64,000 bases of DNA from Escherichia coli (GTDB taxonomy: Bacteria; Pseudomonadota; Gammaproteobacteria; Enterobacterales; Enterobacteriaceae). Of the stretch, positions 11,124 to 19,280 are shown piece after piece. Location: assembly GCF_036507355.1 (NCBI RefSeq), contig NZ_AP027877.1, one strand, 5' to 3'. The notes under the pieces were generated by a model. It did no database searches, had not been told where the DNA came from, and saw only the letters and a program-made list of their open reading frames with translations. Every line of letters starts with the position of its first letter. Positions within the stretch are counted from its first letter, which is position 1. Both the position numbers and the translations under genes were made by a program.

Positions 11124-11873
11124 AATCATCATTCATGTATCAGGAAGAGTTAAGGGTACAAGGGGTACTCGATGGCGGTCTATATTTCATGACTAACGCC
11201 ATTTAAAGGAAGAAGTGCGGTGGGTGGTTTCGAATGAGGGCTGGTGTTTTGGTACGTGGCACGCCACTGCAATGTATTTATCCATCAGTACTCATTCAAA
11301 AGTACCTGGAAAAAATGCCCGCTATGCCAAGCGGGCAAATTGCTTACATGTGGAATTAAGTAATTAACGATAAAGCCAGAGTATTATCATTTATTATACC
11401 CATTCATTTAATCAGGTTAATTACTCAAATCACTGAACTATTCTCTGTTCGCTCACTGATGATGAGTGAGTACCACAACCAATGTATTAGAACAATGCCG
11501 TAGAGTAAGGATGAAATGTCTCTACCACACCTTAAACATCTACTACTGACTAGAACACCCGCCGCAGGTAGATGAGTTTTGTGAGCGTTACAGGAGCGTG
11601 GCTATGCTCATTAACCAACGCTATTGAGATATAAATTTCTAACACTTGAAAAACGATTTTCACTAATAAATTATAACGGGTGTTTTTTATCATACAGCGA
11701 AATAACTTTTTGTTTATTAAATTTAACATTCTTGTGCTAATTTAATTAAAAAGTCCATGCGTAGCATGTGAAGCAGTTAATGCCAGCAATTGTCTCAAAT
11801 GAGCGATTTTTTATAGTGACAAACAATAATAACATTAAAAATAGCCATGTAGACATTAACTGAGGAATAGACA

Positions 11874-13223
11874 ATGTTAATTAATAAAAGCAACGGATTT
11901 AACGCTAGCGCAGTTTTGGGTAGTGGAAATTATAATGAAAATAAATCTTCTAAACACATGGAGCTACTAGCTCATAGTATTGTAAAATTAATTTGTAAGG
12001 AAGCTGCATCAGAGACGTATCGCGGTGCTCTTGAAACTTTACAAAAAATGATGTCTGAATGTAAATATAAAGAAGGCAACGCCTTTGTCATTATGGGTGC
12101 TGGAGGGCAATTAAAACGTATTAAATATGATGTTGATGAAAATAAATTAAAAATATTCAACATATACTTTGATAATAATTACGAGGTAGTTACTGATGGT
12201 GAGCCTGACGTAGTATGTTTAAGCAAGCAGGTCTGGGAAAATCTTCTCATTAAATTAAAACCGGAGATTAAAGAAAATGTGTTTTCTGAAAATAACAAAT
12301 TATCGAGAGAAAATAATGTTGATCAGTATGTTCAATCCGCTAAAAGAAATGAACAGGCCCTTTTCGATAATATAATAAAAAGTGATTTTCATGTTGCTTC
12401 ACTTCAGCCAGGTAGAACACGTAGTGTTATTTCAGAAACGCCGCCAAATGACTGTATGGAATCACGTAATTCATATGAAAACCAAATAGATGAGATTTCA
12501 TCTTTGTCAGAGTCAAAGGAACACCCTATAGATATTCAAGAAAAAACAGATGCGTTTGTGAATGAGTTCAAGGGGATATTATTTGATCAAAATGGAAGGT
12601 CTTCAGAGTTTCTACTTAATTTTTATGAATGTTGCTATGTGTTTTTACCAAGAGCGCAGCCTCAGGATAAAATCGAAAGCTATAATTCAGCACTGCAAGC
12701 TTTTTCCATCTTTTGTTCATCTACGTTGACACATAATAATATAGGCTTTGATTTCAAATTATTTCCAGAAGTCAAGCTGTCTGGAGAACATCTTGAAACG
12801 GTATTCAAATACAAAAATGGCGATGATGTCCGGGAGATAGCCAAAATTAACATTTCTCTCCAAAAAGAAGAGGGTGGTTTATATAATTTACGTGGATTGG
12901 ATTTTAAGGGATGCTTCTTTTCTGGACAGAACTTCAGTAACTATGATATTCAATACGTGAACTGGGGAACGTCATTGTTTGATGTTGATACTCCGTGTAT
13001 TTTTAATACGCCTGCTAACAATGAGAGTTATGAAAAATCATTAAAACCTGTAAGCGAAAACGGTTTAAATGGAGTCTTATCTGATCGTATTAAAAAAATA
13101 AAAATGATCACGGGTGTGGCACCATTCGATGATATTTTATTTATGGATGATGACTTTGATGATAACTCCCCTGAGGATGGTCCCGTTGAGAATATTCCTG
13201 TTATGAATAGTCCTCTTGTATAA
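11874..13223 (+). CDS. Hypothetical protein, 449 aa, AT-rich orphan (ypjB/ypjC-like by position)
   Basis: Intact ORF with GAGGAA RBS 6 nt upstream of ATG; Ser/Asn-rich N-terminus without signal peptide; pentapeptide-repeat-like stretch NLRGLDFKGCFFSGQNFSNYDIQYVNWGTSLFDV; acidic C-terminus. Confidence 0.65.
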   Translation: MLINKSNGFNASAVLGSGNYNENKSSKHMELLAHSIVKLICKEAASETYRGALETLQKMMSECKYKEGNAFVIMGAGGQLKRIKYDVDENKLKIFNIYFDNNYEVVTDGEPDVVCLSKQVWENLLIKLKPEIKENVFSENNKLSRENNVDQYVQSAKRNEQALFDNIIKSDFHVASLQPGRTRSVISETPPNDCMESRNSYENQIDEISSLSESKEHPIDIQEKTDAFVNEFKGILFDQNGRSSEFLLNFYECCYVFLPRAQPQDKIESYNSALQAFSIFCSSTLTHNNIGFDFKLFPEVKLSGEHLETVFKYKNGDDVREIAKINISLQKEEGGLYNLRGLDFKGCFFSGQNFSNYDIQYVNWGTSLFDVDTPCIFNTPANNESYEKSLKPVSENGLNGVLSDRIKKIKMITGVAPFDDILFMDDDFDDNSPEDGPVENIPVMNSPLV

Positions 13224-13580
13224 AGTTCTAAAAGCAGTTTTCAATGATAAATAAATGGCTATTTTTACGAAGAGATAATAACGTAGATTGAAACAATATG
13301 TATTATTGATTGAGTAAATGGGATTATTCTTCACACTACATCCATTTTAGTGTCACTACCAAAGAAAAAGGGGCTACGTTTTCATGTAACCCCTTGATTT
13401 ATTTGGTGGGCTGGCAGTGACTGAATTGGTGCTGTAATTGGTTGAAATATTTCATCTAATGTCTGGTTCAACTTTCCTTAGCTGCCTGAAAGTTTTTTGA
13501 TCTCACCCAGTAATAACAGCGTTACGGTGCACCACGCCTGACTGAAGAACTGCGTGCTCAGGGTTACCACTTCAACGTAA

Positions 13581-13820
13581 AACCGTGGCAGGAGGTCCGG
13601 ACTGAAAAAACTGCTCAGGACATCATCGGCAGGGAACGCACTGCTAGTCTGTAAACTGAACCGACTGGGGCGCAGTATGTGGCATCTTGTCGTGCTGTTG
13701 GAGGAGCTGTGCGAACGTGGTATTAACTTTCGTGCTCTGGCCCAATCTATATTTGCCCAACAATGGGGGGACGAATGCTGTAAAAGTAAAACAATCTGCG
13801 ATCTCAAAGTTATTGTGTGA
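13581..13820 (+). pseudogene. Internal fragment of a resolvase/invertase-type serine recombinase (pinH-like remnant)
   Basis: Open frame ...[36 protein letters not shown]... matches the conserved serine-recombinase catalytic-domain core; N-terminal Ser region and C-terminal HTH absent. Confidence 0.5.
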
Positions 13821-14158
13821 TTTTTATGTGAGCAGAAGATATTCATCAGAAACGATTATGTAAATCATTTTATTTTGCCAACGGCCTCATTGTCGAAAGA
13901 AAAGAATACGCCCGTGTTTCCTGAATAGATTGACTTTTTTATCTAACCACACTTCAGCGCACTGCGTTTAAAAAATGCCTCATTCTTATGCGGAATATCA
14001 TCATTTCATCATGATGTCTTTGATGAGCGGTGAACACAATACACTTGCGCTGTCTCTTCAGGATGAATCCCCTGGTCTGGTGCCTGTGGGCTGATGTTGC
14101 AGCAAAGCTAAGGTCGCTTAAACGCTACTCAGTATTCACTTTTCAGAGGATGAAATTT

Positions 14159-15653
14159 ATGAACAGGACCAGTCCCTATTATTTTCGCCGCTCAGTACTT
14201 TCCTTATTGATATCTACCTTAATATATGCCCAGCCCGGGATGGCGGCCTTCACTACTAATGTTATTGGTGTGGTAAACGATGAGACTGTAGATGGCAACC
14301 AACGAGTAGATGAACGAGGTACAACAAATAACACTCATATTATCAACCATGGCCGGCAGGAGGTCTATGGTGGGATATCTAATAGTAGTATTATTGAAAC
14401 TGGTGGCGAGCAACTAGTATCAATCCATGCCGATATTAACGGGCAAGCTAATAATACAACCATTAATGGAGGCAGACAGTCAATTGAGTACGGAGGAATT
14501 TCTACTAGCACGATAATCGAAAGTGGCAATCAATATGTTCATAAAGGTGGTACCAGCAATGACACGACAATTAAGGGCGGTACTTCACGCATAGAGGGGG
14601 GGACTGCAAATGGAACAATCATTGATGGTGGTAGCCAACAAGTAACAACTCAGGGGCATGTTGACGGTACAACGATAAATAAGTCTGGCTCTCAGGACGT
14701 AGTACAAGGAAGTCTGGCAACGAACACAACCATAAATGGTGGTCGACAGTATGTTGAACAGAGCACAGTAGAAACAACAACCATTAAAAATGGCGGTGAG
14801 CAAAGAGTATATGAGAGCCGTGCGCTGGACACGACGATTGAAGGCGGAACTCAGTCTCTGAATAGTAAGTCAACGGCAAAAAATACACAGATCTATTCTG
14901 GTGGCACGCAAATTGTTGATAACACCAGCTCCTCGGATGTTATTGAAGTTTATTCCGGTGGCGTGCTTGATGTTAGTGGTGGTACGGCAACAAATGTTAC
15001 CCAGCACGATGGTGCAATTTTAAAAACTAACACTAACGGTACGACGGTGAGCGGTACGAATAGTGAAGGTGCATTCTCCATCCACAATCACGTGGCAGAC
15101 AATGTGTTGCTGGAAAACGGTGGTCATTTAGACATAAACGCATATGGTTCGGCAAACAAGACGATTATTAAAGATAAAGGAACAATGTCAGTTTTAACCA
15201 ATGCTAAAGCTGATGCGACCCGAATAGATAATGGCGGGGTTATGGATGTTGCAGGAAACGCGACAAATACCATAATTAATGGTGGCACACAGAATATTAA
15301 TAATTATGGCATAGCCACAGGCACCAATATCAACAGCGGAACGCAAAATATCAAAAGCGGCGGGAAAGCTGACACAACAATTATATCCTCCGGGAGCCGG
15401 CAGGTTGTTGAGAAAGATGGTACGGCAATTGGCAGCAATATTAGCGCCGGAGGCTCGCTGATTGTCTATACCGGCGGTATTGCACATGGGGTTAACCAGG
15501 AGACGGGCAGTGCTTTAGTTGCCAACACGGGTGCAGGGACTGATATCGAAGGATACAACAAGCTCTCTCACTTCACTATTACCGGAGGGGAGGCTAATTA
15601 TGTTGTGCTGGAAAACGCTGGCTCATTAACAGTCGTCACTGGTTCCCGGGCAG
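14159..15653 (+). pseudogene. 5' portion of an AIDA-I/Ag43-type autotransporter adhesin (ypjA-like); signal peptide plus repetitive passenger, truncated by IS1
   Basis: GAGGA RBS, start MNRTSPYYFRRSVLSLLISTLIYAQPGMA (signal peptide); ~19-aa repeats of the type NGGxQxVxxGGxAxxTTI; frame runs into IS1 at 15654 with no beta-barrel domain. Confidence 0.75.
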
Positions 15654-15708
15654 GGTGATGCTGCCAACTTACTGATTTAGTGTATGATGGTGTTTTTGAG
15701 GTGCTCCA

Positions 15709-15984
15709 GTGGCTTCTGTTTCTATCAGCTGTCCCTCCTGTTCAGCTACTGACGGGGTGGTGCGTAACGGCAAAAGCACCGCCGGACATCAGCGCTATCT
15801 CTGCTCTCACTGCCGTAAAACATGGCAACTGCAGTTCACTTACACCGCTTCTCAACCCGGTACGCACCAGAAAATCATTGATATGGCCATGAATGGCGTT
15901 GGATGCCGGGCAACAGCCCGCATTATGGGCGTTGGCCTCAACACGATTTTACGTCACTTAAAAAACTCAGGCCGCAGTCGGTAA
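15709..15984 (+). CDS. insA: IS1 InsA
   Basis: Protein identical to the InsA at 8363-8638. Confidence 0.95.
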
Positions 15985-16406
15985 CCTCGCGCATACAGCC
16001 GGGCAGTGACGTCATCGTCTGCGCGGAAATGGACGAACAGTGGGGCTATGTCGGGGCTAAATCGCGCCAGCGCTGGCTGTTTTACGCGTATGACAGGCTC
16101 CGGAAGACGGTTGTTGCGCACGTATTCGGTGAACGCACGATGGCGACGCTGGGGCGTCTTATGAGCCTGCTGTCACCCTTTGACGTGGTGATATGGATGA
16201 CGGATGGCTGGCCGCTGTATGAATCCCGCCTGAAGGGAAAGCTGCACGTAATCAGCAAGCGATATACGCAGCGAATTGAGCGGCATAACCTGAATCTGAG
16301 GCAGCACCTGGCACGGCTGGGACGGAAGTCGCTGTCGTTCTCAAAATCGGTGGAGCTGCATGACAAAGTCATCGGGCATTATCTGAACATAAAACACTAT
16401 CAATAA
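15903..16406 (+). CDS. insB: IS1 InsB reading frame
   Basis: Protein identical to the InsB at 8557-9060. Confidence 0.93.
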
Positions 16407-16421
16407 GTTGGAGTCATTACC

Positions 16422-17239
16422 GAGGTTTTGTTATATATGTTGTTTCCAATATATTTTTCATTTGTCAAAATTTGATGTATTTTTGCACGAGTCCATAATG
16501 TTCCATTTTCTGCAGGTATGTTCTGTTCATTTAATCTCTCAGCAATAATGAATTCTGGGACGTTATTATCTATAAAGAGATCATATATTCTATTTACAAT
16601 TTTTATTTCATTTTTTGGTCCCGGAATTAATATTACCCTATCTGTTTGAATACTCTTTCTTTTGCGGAAACTCAATATTTCTTTAGCTATGCCATTTTCG
16701 TCTACTAAAAGACGTCTCAGCCCATAACCAGCCATACCGCCTTGATGATAACCAAGCTTTATTAAATTTACTTGCCCTATAAATACCTTTTCAGATAGAT
16801 TCCTGCTGTGATATGCAGCACTAGATCTTTTTATATTCAGTATAACAGAGGACTCTAAAGGGAAATCTTTAGTGGGTATAGGTTCGGAACAATATATAAG
16901 ATCTACACCATTTCTCTCAAATAGAAAGGAATAATATGCCGCTTCATCACTATTTTGAAAACGACCAAAACGGCTCACATCATAAAATAATACAGCCTGT
17001 ATATCTATTTTCTTTTGTTCTACATCGCTAAGTAACTGCTGCAAAGAATGCCTGCCTACGATACTGACTCCGCTCTTACCTGCATCATCGTAGGTATAAG
17101 CGATTTCCATATTGTTCTTTTCAGCATAATCTTTGATATATTCGGACTGATTATGTAAAGAATATTGCTGATGGTCGGTAGACATCCTCAAGTACTGCGC
17201 GACCCTAACTCTATGATTTTTTTCATTTTCGCTAGCCAT
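16422..17239 (-). pseudogene. Large serine recombinase, N-terminal ~270 aa; 3' end removed at the IS1 junction
   Basis: MASENEKNHRVRVAQYLRMSTDHQQYSLHNQSEYIKDYAEKNNMEIAYTYDDAGKSG... (catalytic Ser motif), ...LWTRAKIHQILTNEKYIGNNIYNK recombinase domain; ORF continues a few codons into IS1; AT-rich. Confidence 0.7.
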
Positions 17240-17521
17240 GCACGAAACCTCATGGATGATTCAATACAATGTAGTGGATAAAATTGATCAAATTTTAACC
17301 GAATTCAACTGTTTTATCATTGATTAGAGCGAATTTGGTAGATCTTCGAGGTGTATGATAATCGAGAAGAGATGTGAATTATTTAGCTGATATGACCGAC
17401 AGCTTTCGTTATGTGGACTCAATGTCCCCATTTGTAAATGGCTATGCTTAGTCCACATAGGTTAATGGTGTGATTATTAATTCTTTAACTAAATCAAGAT
17501 AGTTAATCCATCATGGGAGAG

Positions 17522-18751
17522 TTATGCGGCAATAACTTTGCATTTTTGAGACGAAACATAGTCACTCCACCATTGCATGAGAACCACCCGTTCAGTGAGA
17601 TACTCTGCACGATTGTAGGCTGCAATTATTTCATCTTTCTTCGAGTGGGCAAGGGCGGCTTCTAAGACATCAGTCCTAAACTTGCCAGACTCCTCAGCAG
17701 CCGTTCTAGCAATGGATCGCATACCGTGAGCTACAAGCTCACCTCCGAAACCCATACGGATTATGGCCGCATTAGCTGTTTGTTCATGCATGTGATTGAG
17801 TGGAGCTTTGATACTGGGGAACACCCACTCTCTATGCCCGCTGATGACTTTCATTAAATCCAAAACTCGCAAAGCTTCTTTGCTCAGTGGAACTTTGTGA
17901 GGCTTCTTCATTTTCATAAACTCCGCCGGGATGTTCCACATGCCAGTTTCAATATCAATATCTGACCATCTTGTGCGAACAGCTTCACCTGGGCGAACCC
18001 ATGTGAGAAGTTGCCACTCAATCAGTAGCCTTGTTTCCAAACGGATAGAAGCATTGTTTAGAGCAACCAAGAAGCGAGGGAGTTCGGAAGGGGGTAATGC
18101 TGGCATATTCTGTTTTTTTGGCTTGCTGAACCGTTGCCCCAGGTTGTCTGCCGGGTTGAATTCTATGAGTTCTTCTGTTGCTGCATAGCGGAAAATTTCA
18201 TTCAGGCGGGATATGATGCGGCGAAGTGTTTCAAGGACACCTCGTTTTTCTATGGGTTCTAAATGCTGTTTAAGCATTTTAGGGCGAATCTCCTTAATTG
18301 GGGTATCACCCAATGTGGAAAAGATATTTCTCTCTAGGCTTCGCCAGATGTCGTTAGCATGATCTTGGGAGATGCCTGACGTTTTGACTTTCTCATCAAG
18401 CCACTTCTTGGCTACTGCTTGAAATGTATGTTCCGTGGCATCTTTCAGTGCATTGGCTTTTTGGTTGTTATGAACTTGGGGGTCTATACCATTTGTAAGC
18501 AACGACAAGTATTCATCACGTAAAGCTCGTGCCTTCGCAAGTGTAAGGTGAGGATAGGTTCCTAAGCTCACCTTAGTTCGCTTTTTGGTCACAGGCACTG
18601 CATATCTGAAATACCAATTTTTCTTCCCTCCCTTCGCCAGGGGAGCGATTCGCAACAGCAAACCATCGCCGTCAAAAAGGTTAACCTCTTTTTCGGCAGG
18701 TTTGGTGCTTTTGATTTCAGTGTCAGTGAGCTTCTTAGCGATTTTGGCCAT
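17522..18751 (-). CDS. P4-type tyrosine integrase (phage/island integrase), ~409 aa
   Basis: ORF 17522-18832; start placed at ATG 18749-18751 (MAKIAKKLTDTEIKSTKP...) with GAGGG RBS; N-terminal arm-binding-like region and C-terminal catalytic region (...HGMRSIARTAAEESG...); adjacent to ssrA 3' end. Confidence 0.85.
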   Translation of the reverse strand: MAKIAKKLTDTEIKSTKPAEKEVNLFDGDGLLLRIAPLAKGGKKNWYFRYAVPVTKKRTKVSLGTYPHLTLAKARALRDEYLSLLTNGIDPQVHNNQKANALKDATEHTFQAVAKKWLDEKVKTSGISQDHANDIWRSLERNIFSTLGDTPIKEIRPKMLKQHLEPIEKRGVLETLRRIISRLNEIFRYAATEELIEFNPADNLGQRFSKPKKQNMPALPPSELPRFLVALNNASIRLETRLLIEWQLLTWVRPGEAVRTRWSDIDIETGMWNIPAEFMKMKKPHKVPLSKEALRVLDLMKVISGHREWVFPSIKAPLNHMHEQTANAAIIRMGFGGELVAHGMRSIARTAAEESGKFRTDVLEAALAHSKKDEIIAAYNRAEYLTERVVLMQWWSDYVSSQKCKVIAA

Positions 18752-18850
18752 GTTTGGGACCCTCGATTTTAGGACCCATCTTCGTGGGTCCCATTCAGGG
18801 TGCCATAACTCGTAGTTCTCAGCAATTCTCACTAGACTACAATAGACGTA

Positions 18851-18882
18851 AAAAAGCCCGCAGAGCTTGTGCTGTGCGGGCT
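18851..18882 (-). terminator. Rho-independent terminator downstream of ssrA
   Basis: Minus strand reads gcccgcacagc-loop-gctctgcgggc followed by TTTTT. Confidence 0.7.
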
Positions 18883-18917
18883 TAGTAGACTTTACTGAAC
18901 TTCAGTACATCAATATT

Positions 18918-19280
18918 TGGTGGAGCTGGCGGGAGTTGAACCCGCGTCCGAAATTCCTACATCCTCGGTACTACATGCTTAGTCAGTCTTTACATTCGCT
19001 TGCCAGCTGCGGACGGACACGCCACTAACAAACTAGCCTGATTAAGTTTTAACGCTTCAACCCCAGGCAGGGCTTCCACGCGATCTCTTTTGGGTTTGAC
19101 CTCTCTTGATCCCCGTCCTAAGAGCGGAGGCTAGGGAGAGAGGGCTCTAAGCAGGTTATTAAGCTGCTAAAGCGTAGTTTTCGTCGTTTGCGACTATTTT
19201 TTGCGGCTTTTTACGAGGCCAACCGCCCCTCGGCATGCACCTTGGGTTTCGCAAATCCCGTCGAATCCAGAATCAGCCCC
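18918..19280 (-). ncRNA. ssrA: tmRNA (SsrA), 363 nt
   Basis: Reverse complement begins GGGGCTGATTCTGGATTCGACGGGATTTGCG and ends ...GTTCAACTCCCGCCAGCTCCACCA; tag-peptide reading frame region present. Confidence 0.97.

Follow-up and report, generated by a model that had tools for sequence, protein, structure and literature searches.

The window analysed here is a 64,000-nucleotide stretch of Escherichia coli DNA (assembly GCF_036507355.1, contig NZ_AP027877.1), in which the genes gabD, lhgO, glaH, an alpha-amylase-like gene, ileY and ypjCB are followed by a short mobile-element fragment and then by ypjA. The features on which the analysis turns are the following, all positions being those of the window.

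11874 to 13223, plus strand: ypjCB, which had been called an orphan ORF (NCBIfam Ecoli_YpjCB, E 1.2e-278).
13335 to 13403, minus strand: relic of a Fels-2/SopEPhi-type (P2-like) attP P' arm, including an intrinsic terminator at 13368-13395.
13404 to 13504, minus strand: CP4-57-type attR-like island end, composed of the 12-nt ssrA 3' terminus without T357 (GCCAGCCCACCA, 13404-13415) and an island arm.
13505 to 13589, plus strand: internal fragment of IS3 orfB, 85 bp, corresponding to nt 468-553 of the IS3 transposase coding sequence with a 1-nt deletion.
13581 to 13820, plus strand: open frame equivalent to pinH (b2648), 79 codons plus stop, mapping to K-12 2783065..2783304 on the minus strand.
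13590 to 13775, plus strand: piece of a Din-family (Pin/Gin/Hin) invertase gene, ~186 bp covering about codons 41-100 of ~185.
13776 to 14149, plus strand: ypjA upstream module, with a truncated ymgJ-like ORF, a 39-aa ORF and the ypjA leader.
14150 to 15653, plus strand: 5' third of the autotransporter gene ypjA (NCBIfam Ag43/AIDA-I matches), cut by an IS1 at 15654-16421.

Judged by its sequence and position, the segment 13581-13820 is the K-12 pseudogene pinH, a correspondence that the preliminary description had proposed from position and that nucleotide identity now bears out. In the K-12 MG1655 RefSeq record pinH (b2648) lies at 2783065..2783304 on the minus strand, flanked by ypjA and ypjB, and the neighbours in the window are the same, with ypjA on one side and ypjB/C and ileY on the other. 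Across ~520 bp around pinH the window and K-12 differ at three positions, and over the invertase-derived piece 185 of 186 nucleotides are the same (99.5%). While locus, boundaries and neighbours are thus shared, the window differs from K-12 in that its ypjA is cut by IS1 and in that the island closest to ssrA carries a P4-type integrase and a large serine recombinase, where K-12 has CP4-57. In strain EC1515 the PGAP annotation labels the counterpart of 13584-13751 a 'recombinase family protein', incomplete and missing both its N-terminus and its C-terminus, and a partial recombinase pseudogene is marked at the same spot in other strains too. Because the locus is listed in the K-12 RefSeq record and as a PGAP pseudogene elsewhere, what was found is an already catalogued pseudogene. 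The same composite occurs in ~3000 of 5426 complete E. coli genomes (about 55%), deep lineages included. In the literature searched, no discussion of pinH or b2648 was found.

The frame that drew attention to the locus had been described as ~80 codons long, containing the conserved core of resolvase/invertase enzymes and lying within a span of 13517-13820. It is open from 13581 to 13817 (79 codons, with the stop codon at 13818-13820) and contains KLNRLGRSMWHLVVLLEELCERGINFRAL at 13653-13739. The span itself needs to be divided: 13517-13589 belongs to the IS3 piece, which starts at 13505, and the recombinase DNA occupies 13590-13775. The 79-residue translation matched the Pfam Resolvase family (PF00239) with an E-value of 1.2e-9 and a score of 38.9 bits, where the curated cut-off is 23.3 bits, over profile positions 48-103 of 145. 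It also matched the Gin invertase (PDB 3uj3/4m6f; E 1.7e-12, Gin residues 39-95 of 193), and the match to gamma-delta resolvase (residues 45-97) was weaker than that to Gin. The tblastn comparison with invertases that had been suggested as a check gave significant matches among phage and plasmid records, with E-values from 6e-16 to ~1e-16, to annotated DNA invertases (Fels-2, SEN8, hin and pinE); these always spanned query residues 3-55, the central ~53 residues. The nearest DNA relative of the fragment was pinE of an intact e14-like prophage, with 85.7% identity, and nt 124-270 of K-12 pinE aligned with it at 83.7% identity over 147 ungapped nucleotides.

The fragment retains little more than the middle of such a gene. 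A 4-nt deletion after 13741 breaks the frame of the invertase piece, which is in frame only up to that point; an extra G lies in the G-run near 13766-13771, recognisable invertase similarity runs on to ~13771, and DNA homology ends at 13775, beyond the frameshifting deletion. Given this deletion and the layout of the module border, the open frame's final ~26 codons (AQSIFAQQWGDECCKSKTICDLKVIV) are not in-frame recombinase sequence: this tail consists of frameshifted recombinase remnant to 13775 and of the ypjA upstream module from ~13776. The preliminary description had held that both the N-terminal serine region and the C-terminal helix-turn-helix were missing, which was borne out. The region of the nucleophile serine (Ser9/Ser10) is absent, the protein match beginning only at profile position 48 or Gin residue 39; DNA homology to pinE begins at ~nt 121, the gene's 5' ~120 nt are missing, from the part of invertase genes that carries a Fis-bound recombinational enhancer, and the sequence upstream is IS3. 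At the other end the E-helix and the C-terminal helix-turn-helix are absent, the match ending at Gin residue 95 of 193. Within the part that remains, the catalytic cluster D-R-x-x-R is not intact, as KLDRLGRS reads KLNRLGRS in both the window and K-12 and KLNLLGRS in the ST69 lineage.

Directly upstream, a peptide of 22 residues read from 13517, in a frame other than that of pinH, had been thought reminiscent of IS3-family transposases. This resemblance proved genuine, since in a pairwise blastn comparison 77 of 86 nucleotides (90%) are identical to IS3; likewise, thousands of annotated IS3 copies match at ~89.5% identity (E 6e-22). The Pfam HTH_21 match of the peptide stayed below threshold (E 3.6e-4) because the IS3 piece is short. 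Unlike IS3 itself, the scrap is an internal part only and cannot transpose: it has no terminal inverted repeats, no orfA/orfB with a frameshift site, no DDE domain and no target duplication, and its flanks are an unrelated island arm on one side and the invertase piece on the other. The invertase piece in turn abuts the IS3 scrap at its left edge and the ypjA upstream module at its right edge. Each of the three junctions falls within the genes from which the pieces came, so that no IS3 end, no invertase start and no invertase end survives.

Set beside the Din-family invertases (e14 pinE, Mu Gin, Salmonella Hin, P1 Cin and those of Fels-2 and P2-like phages), the fragment shows clear homology over the central catalytic segment, with the common block ...LVVxKLxRLGRS...ELxERGINFRxL. 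In contrast to them, it keeps only ~60 of ~185 codons, is frameshifted, lacks the nucleophile serine, the E-helix and the helix-turn-helix, has Asn in place of the conserved Asp, and is accompanied by neither an invertible segment nor crossover sites. It is homologous to Hin/Gin/Cin/Pin and to IS3, and it is a functional member of neither family.

A scan for the IS3-invertase junction in one genome per species returned two matches; as exact matches were required, absence outside E. coli is weak evidence. One lies in an assembly of Terrisporobacter mayombei DSM 6539 (L009, a 539-bp contig, 95-98% identical to window 13570-14108) and the other in the Planococcaceae metagenome-assembled genome UBA3370 (L010, a 2799-bp contig, 95-98% identical to window 11078-13876). 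Both are E. coli DNA in unrelated assemblies, where contamination or mis-binning most likely placed it. In K-12 stretch L003, pinE of e14 (1686-2240) and ymgJ-ycgI (15265-15908) are only ~13 kb apart, and in the window the corresponding pieces, pinH and the ymgJ-like module, lie side by side without a gap, by coincidence perhaps or as the trace of an old rearrangement.

The 280 bp that separate ypjCB from the IS3 scrap hold attachment-site relics, at which the K-12 RefSeq record carries no annotation (the K-12 core is at 2783470-2783481). About 90 bp left of the pinH fragment lies the attR-like end. Its core, on the reverse strand, reads GCCAGCCCACCA, compared with GCCAGCTCCACCA in true ssrA, and has the same T357-less form as the ssrA end in K-12 psaA. 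The excision of CP4-57 was reported to delete exactly T357 of ssrA (PMC10107115). The stretch 13403-13479, which takes in the adjoining arm, aligned with the right end of K-12 CP4-57 and with psaA at 74% identity over 77 ungapped nucleotides, including ACCAATTCAGnCnCnGCCAGCCCACCAA (window, ACCAATTCAGTCACTGCCAGCCCACCAA; K-12, ACCAATTCAGACTCCGCCAGCCCACCAA); this similarity is modest, and its E-value of 2e-9 refers to a small pairwise database. The ssrA-like piece is oriented as is true ssrA at 18918-19280.

On the other side of the core, 13342-13415 shares 90.7% identity over 75 nt with the point in E. coli ACN001 where ssrA meets a prophage, and an equally good match comes from the annotated attP of Fels-2, SopEPhi and RE2010. 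ACN001 carries a complete P2/Fels-2-like prophage bounded by a perfect 49-nt repeat, made up of the last 45 nt of ssrA and AATA, so that the flank that matches is the P' arm of the phage itself, terminator included. The relic thus resembles the CP4-57 attR and psaA in having a T357-less ssrA 3' terminus followed by an arm like the CP4-57 right end, and it resembles a Fels-2-type attP in that its other side is the Fels-2 P' arm with terminator, in the register of real ssrA-prophage junctions. Unlike either, it is a hybrid of two elements' arms, far from true ssrA and with no adjacent integrase. In ST69 (L007) and CB6886 (L006), ~25 nt corresponding to window 13400-13425 have the ssrA-like core replaced by the unrelated CTGCGCTGTGATTTACTGAGTTTA, with both flanks still homologous to the window. 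A chimeric query composed of the ypjCB 3' end, the Fels-2 arm and true ssrA, designed as an empty site in which ssrA joins directly to the Fels-2 arm and ypjCB, was matched by none of the 5426 genomes; the segment from ypjA to pinH is accordingly never seen as a cleanly absent unit.

The proximity of a Fels-2-type arm raises the question of whether the invertase piece came from the same phage, as a remnant of the tail-fibre invertase of a Fels-2-like (P2-family) prophage rather than as cargo of a CP4-57-type island. The arm at 13335-13403 lies 190 bp from the fragment, ssrA prophages of Fels-2 type do carry an invertase (in ACN001, for example, at 8841-9407 of stretch L005), the Fels-2 and SEN8 invertases are the best phage matches to the fragment by protein (73.6% identity), and the orientation of the fragment relative to the ssrA-like piece is that seen in ACN001. 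Against this, relative to the att core the fragment is found towards the ssrA body and the ACN001 prophage body on the opposite side, so that a simple internal deletion cannot yield the observed order, and at the DNA level e14-type pinE (83.7-85.7%) is a somewhat nearer relative of the fragment than a P2-like prophage invertase (80.3%). We consider this source possible, with odds clearly against it, and favour debris of a CP4-57-family island.

The preliminary description was right to see scars of older mobile elements here; it had also called the site tRNA-linked, by implication at ileY, and here a correction is needed, as the att relics at 13335-13504 are of ssrA (tmRNA) type. That the scars nonetheless mark an integration site at ileY, unrelated to ssrA, is doubtful and less probable than a Fels-2 source. 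The tRNA gene stands 2.4 kb left of the fragments in a stretch of low G+C that runs throughout from ~7000 to 19000, and ileY, ypjCB, pinH and ypjA occur together in the genomes inspected; however, neither an ileY-derived repeat nor an integrase was seen near the fragments, the flanks of ileY matched phages over the tRNA alone, and the sole attachment-site relics beside the fragments are the Fels-2 attP arm and the T357-less CP4-57-type attR, both of ssrA type.

The history of substitution in the fragment bears on whether it has been retained for a function. The form shared by the window and K-12 differs from that of ST69 (CB6886), a deep branch of E. coli, at 16 of 152 aligned nucleotides, distributed 6/5/5 over the codon positions, and nearly all of these differences are nonsynonymous. 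When they were polarised against functional pin genes, 8 changes were derived in the window lineage and 5 in ST69, with 3 left unassigned. The D-to-N change is common to both lineages; in ST69 the catalytic motif has also changed from R to L, and a stop codon has arisen in frame. Between lineages the fragment is 88.7% identical, compared with ~94-95% for the IS3 scrap and the ypjA upstream module; the att-relic segments further left, at 84-87%, have diverged as much as the fragment or more. Substitutions blind to codon position, altered catalytic residues and an extra stop together form a pattern that, read from these alignments, is one of neutral decay.

Nearby sites on which a recombinase might act were likewise not found. 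It had been suggested that inverted repeats around the fragment could be relic recombination sites, an idea that received no support: a consensus for hix/gix-type crossover sites, which in invertase systems are inverted 26-bp sequences on either side of the invertible segment, gave no match at up to 3 mismatches in the whole 64-kb window, and a scan of 13000-14400 for inverted repeats returned only short, imperfect pairs at chance level. With no nucleophile region, no E-helix and no helix-turn-helix, with Asp changed to Asn, a frameshift and no crossover sites nearby, the fragment cannot recombine DNA.

A role of another kind might be imagined, the fragment being kept as a 47-aa peptide, as a partial subunit that interferes with resident Pin enzymes, or as a regulatory part of ypjA. 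That it has persisted in deep lineages and in about 55% of the complete E. coli genomes, and that an ATG-initiated 47-aa ORF starts at 13677, could be read in this way. We regard such retention as highly improbable, as substitutions ignore codon position, both lineages alter conserved residues, the same frame ends early at a stop in ST69, and divergence between lineages is 11% in the fragment versus 5-6% in the IS3 scrap and the ypjA upstream module. Moreover, no Rfam family matched within 13000-14300 at E-values up to 1, no promoter-like signal on the plus strand exceeded shuffled expectation (the promoter-like hits lie on the opposite strand), and linkage to ypjCB and ypjA would explain the persistence. 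Finally, the notion that the resemblance to serine recombinases arose by chance in an accidental open frame, for which short length is the sole support, can be dismissed in the face of E-values between 1e-9 and 1e-16, obtained in three independent comparisons (Pfam, tblastn and Gin), and of a 147-nt alignment to pinE in which 84-86% of the nucleotides are identical.

Taken together, the results lead us to place roughly 90% probability on the reading that pinH is an inert composite of invertase and IS3 sequence, drifting neutrally; as debris it probably lies within the distal end of an ssrA island of the CP4-57 family. To account for its structure, we propose that an IS3 copy once lay in or beside a Din-family invertase gene and that deletions then stripped both ends of both genes, as the internal junctions indicate. 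The remnant has been drifting since before its carrier lineages within E. coli split, and it probably persisted through its linkage to ypjCB and ypjA.

For the island as a whole, a nested history can be envisaged. A Fels-2-like prophage would first have occupied ssrA; a CP4-57-family island carrying ypjA would then have entered the reconstituted ssrA, leaving a distal end in the order island arm, core, Fels-2 arm; and the Fels-2-like body would subsequently have been lost. Later ssrA islands, CP4-57 in K-12 and here one with a P4-type integrase and an IS1-truncated large serine recombinase, may have pushed the join at 13335-13504 further from ssrA, in which case the middle island would hold the IS3 and invertase scraps as debris, a short way in from its distal end. 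This island model is weakened by the lack of an empty site, by the replaced core in ST69 and by the modest similarity of the arm (74% over 77 nt). An article by Williams from 2003, 'Traffic at the tmRNA gene', may describe tandem ssrA islands in K-12.

The confirmation that pinH is inert mobile-element debris carries little biological weight. Its use lies in annotation, where exact limits can now be given for the IS3 scrap (13505-13589) and for the invertase scrap (13590-13775), followed by the ypjA upstream module. The hybrid relic would in turn give relative ages: the segment from ypjA to pinH would be an old ssrA island, and the Fels-2-like prophage on which it was stacked would be older still. 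It illustrates the tandem build-up of islands at tmRNA genes. We also considered whether the unannotated hybrid site at 13335-13504 could serve as a usable secondary attR for IntA-type integrases, which strikes us as a long shot. Were it so, a larger segment comprising the ssrA-proximal island, ypjA and pinH would occasionally be excised, leaving an ssrA that lacks T357 and has acquired a terminator of Fels-2 origin, and a junction reading 'ssrA ... GCCAGCCCACCAAATAAATCAAGGGGTTAC'. The switch of ribosome rescue by CP4-57 excision would then gain a second, larger deletion that removes an adhesin gene.

Several observations concern the surroundings of the fragment. The stretch from ~7000 to 19000 has a uniformly low G+C content (30-45%) except for the IS1 copies. 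The tRNA gene at 11048-11123 was called tRNA-Met (CAT) by ARAGORN, and the identical K-12 gene is annotated in RefSeq as ileY, tRNA-Ile(CAU); anticodon-based callers cannot tell the two apart. An antisense ORF encoding 122 aa at 13478-13846 on the minus strand had no NCBIfam match and was treated as spurious. Immediately right of the invertase piece, 13774-14129 is 88.8% identical over 356 nt to the paralogous ymgJ-ycgI region near minE in K-12. The ymgJ-like ORF upstream of ypjA stops after 11 codons (13831-13863), and the 39-aa ORF at 13975-14094, annotated as a hypothetical protein, is conserved at both paralogous loci.

Full-length ypjA comprises 4569 nt in EC1515. In the window ypjA breaks off at 15653, after its 5' third, against a complete 768-bp IS1 (15654-16421) whose ends are visible in the sequence itself, and this IS1 connects it to the 279 N-terminal codons of a large serine recombinase (16400-17239, minus strand). 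Such an arrangement suggests that an IS1-mediated deletion removed the rest of ypjA, the rest of the serine recombinase gene and the DNA between them. The ssrA-proximal island (16400-18832) begins with a P4-type integrase (17522-18832, minus strand), and the large serine recombinase, which is CcrB-like, comes next; ACN001 has the same order of integrase and serine recombinase after its Fels-2-like prophage, and this arrangement differs from K-12 CP4-57. A second IS1 transposase ORF lies at 8557-9060, inside the alpha-amylase-like (ygaQ) region.
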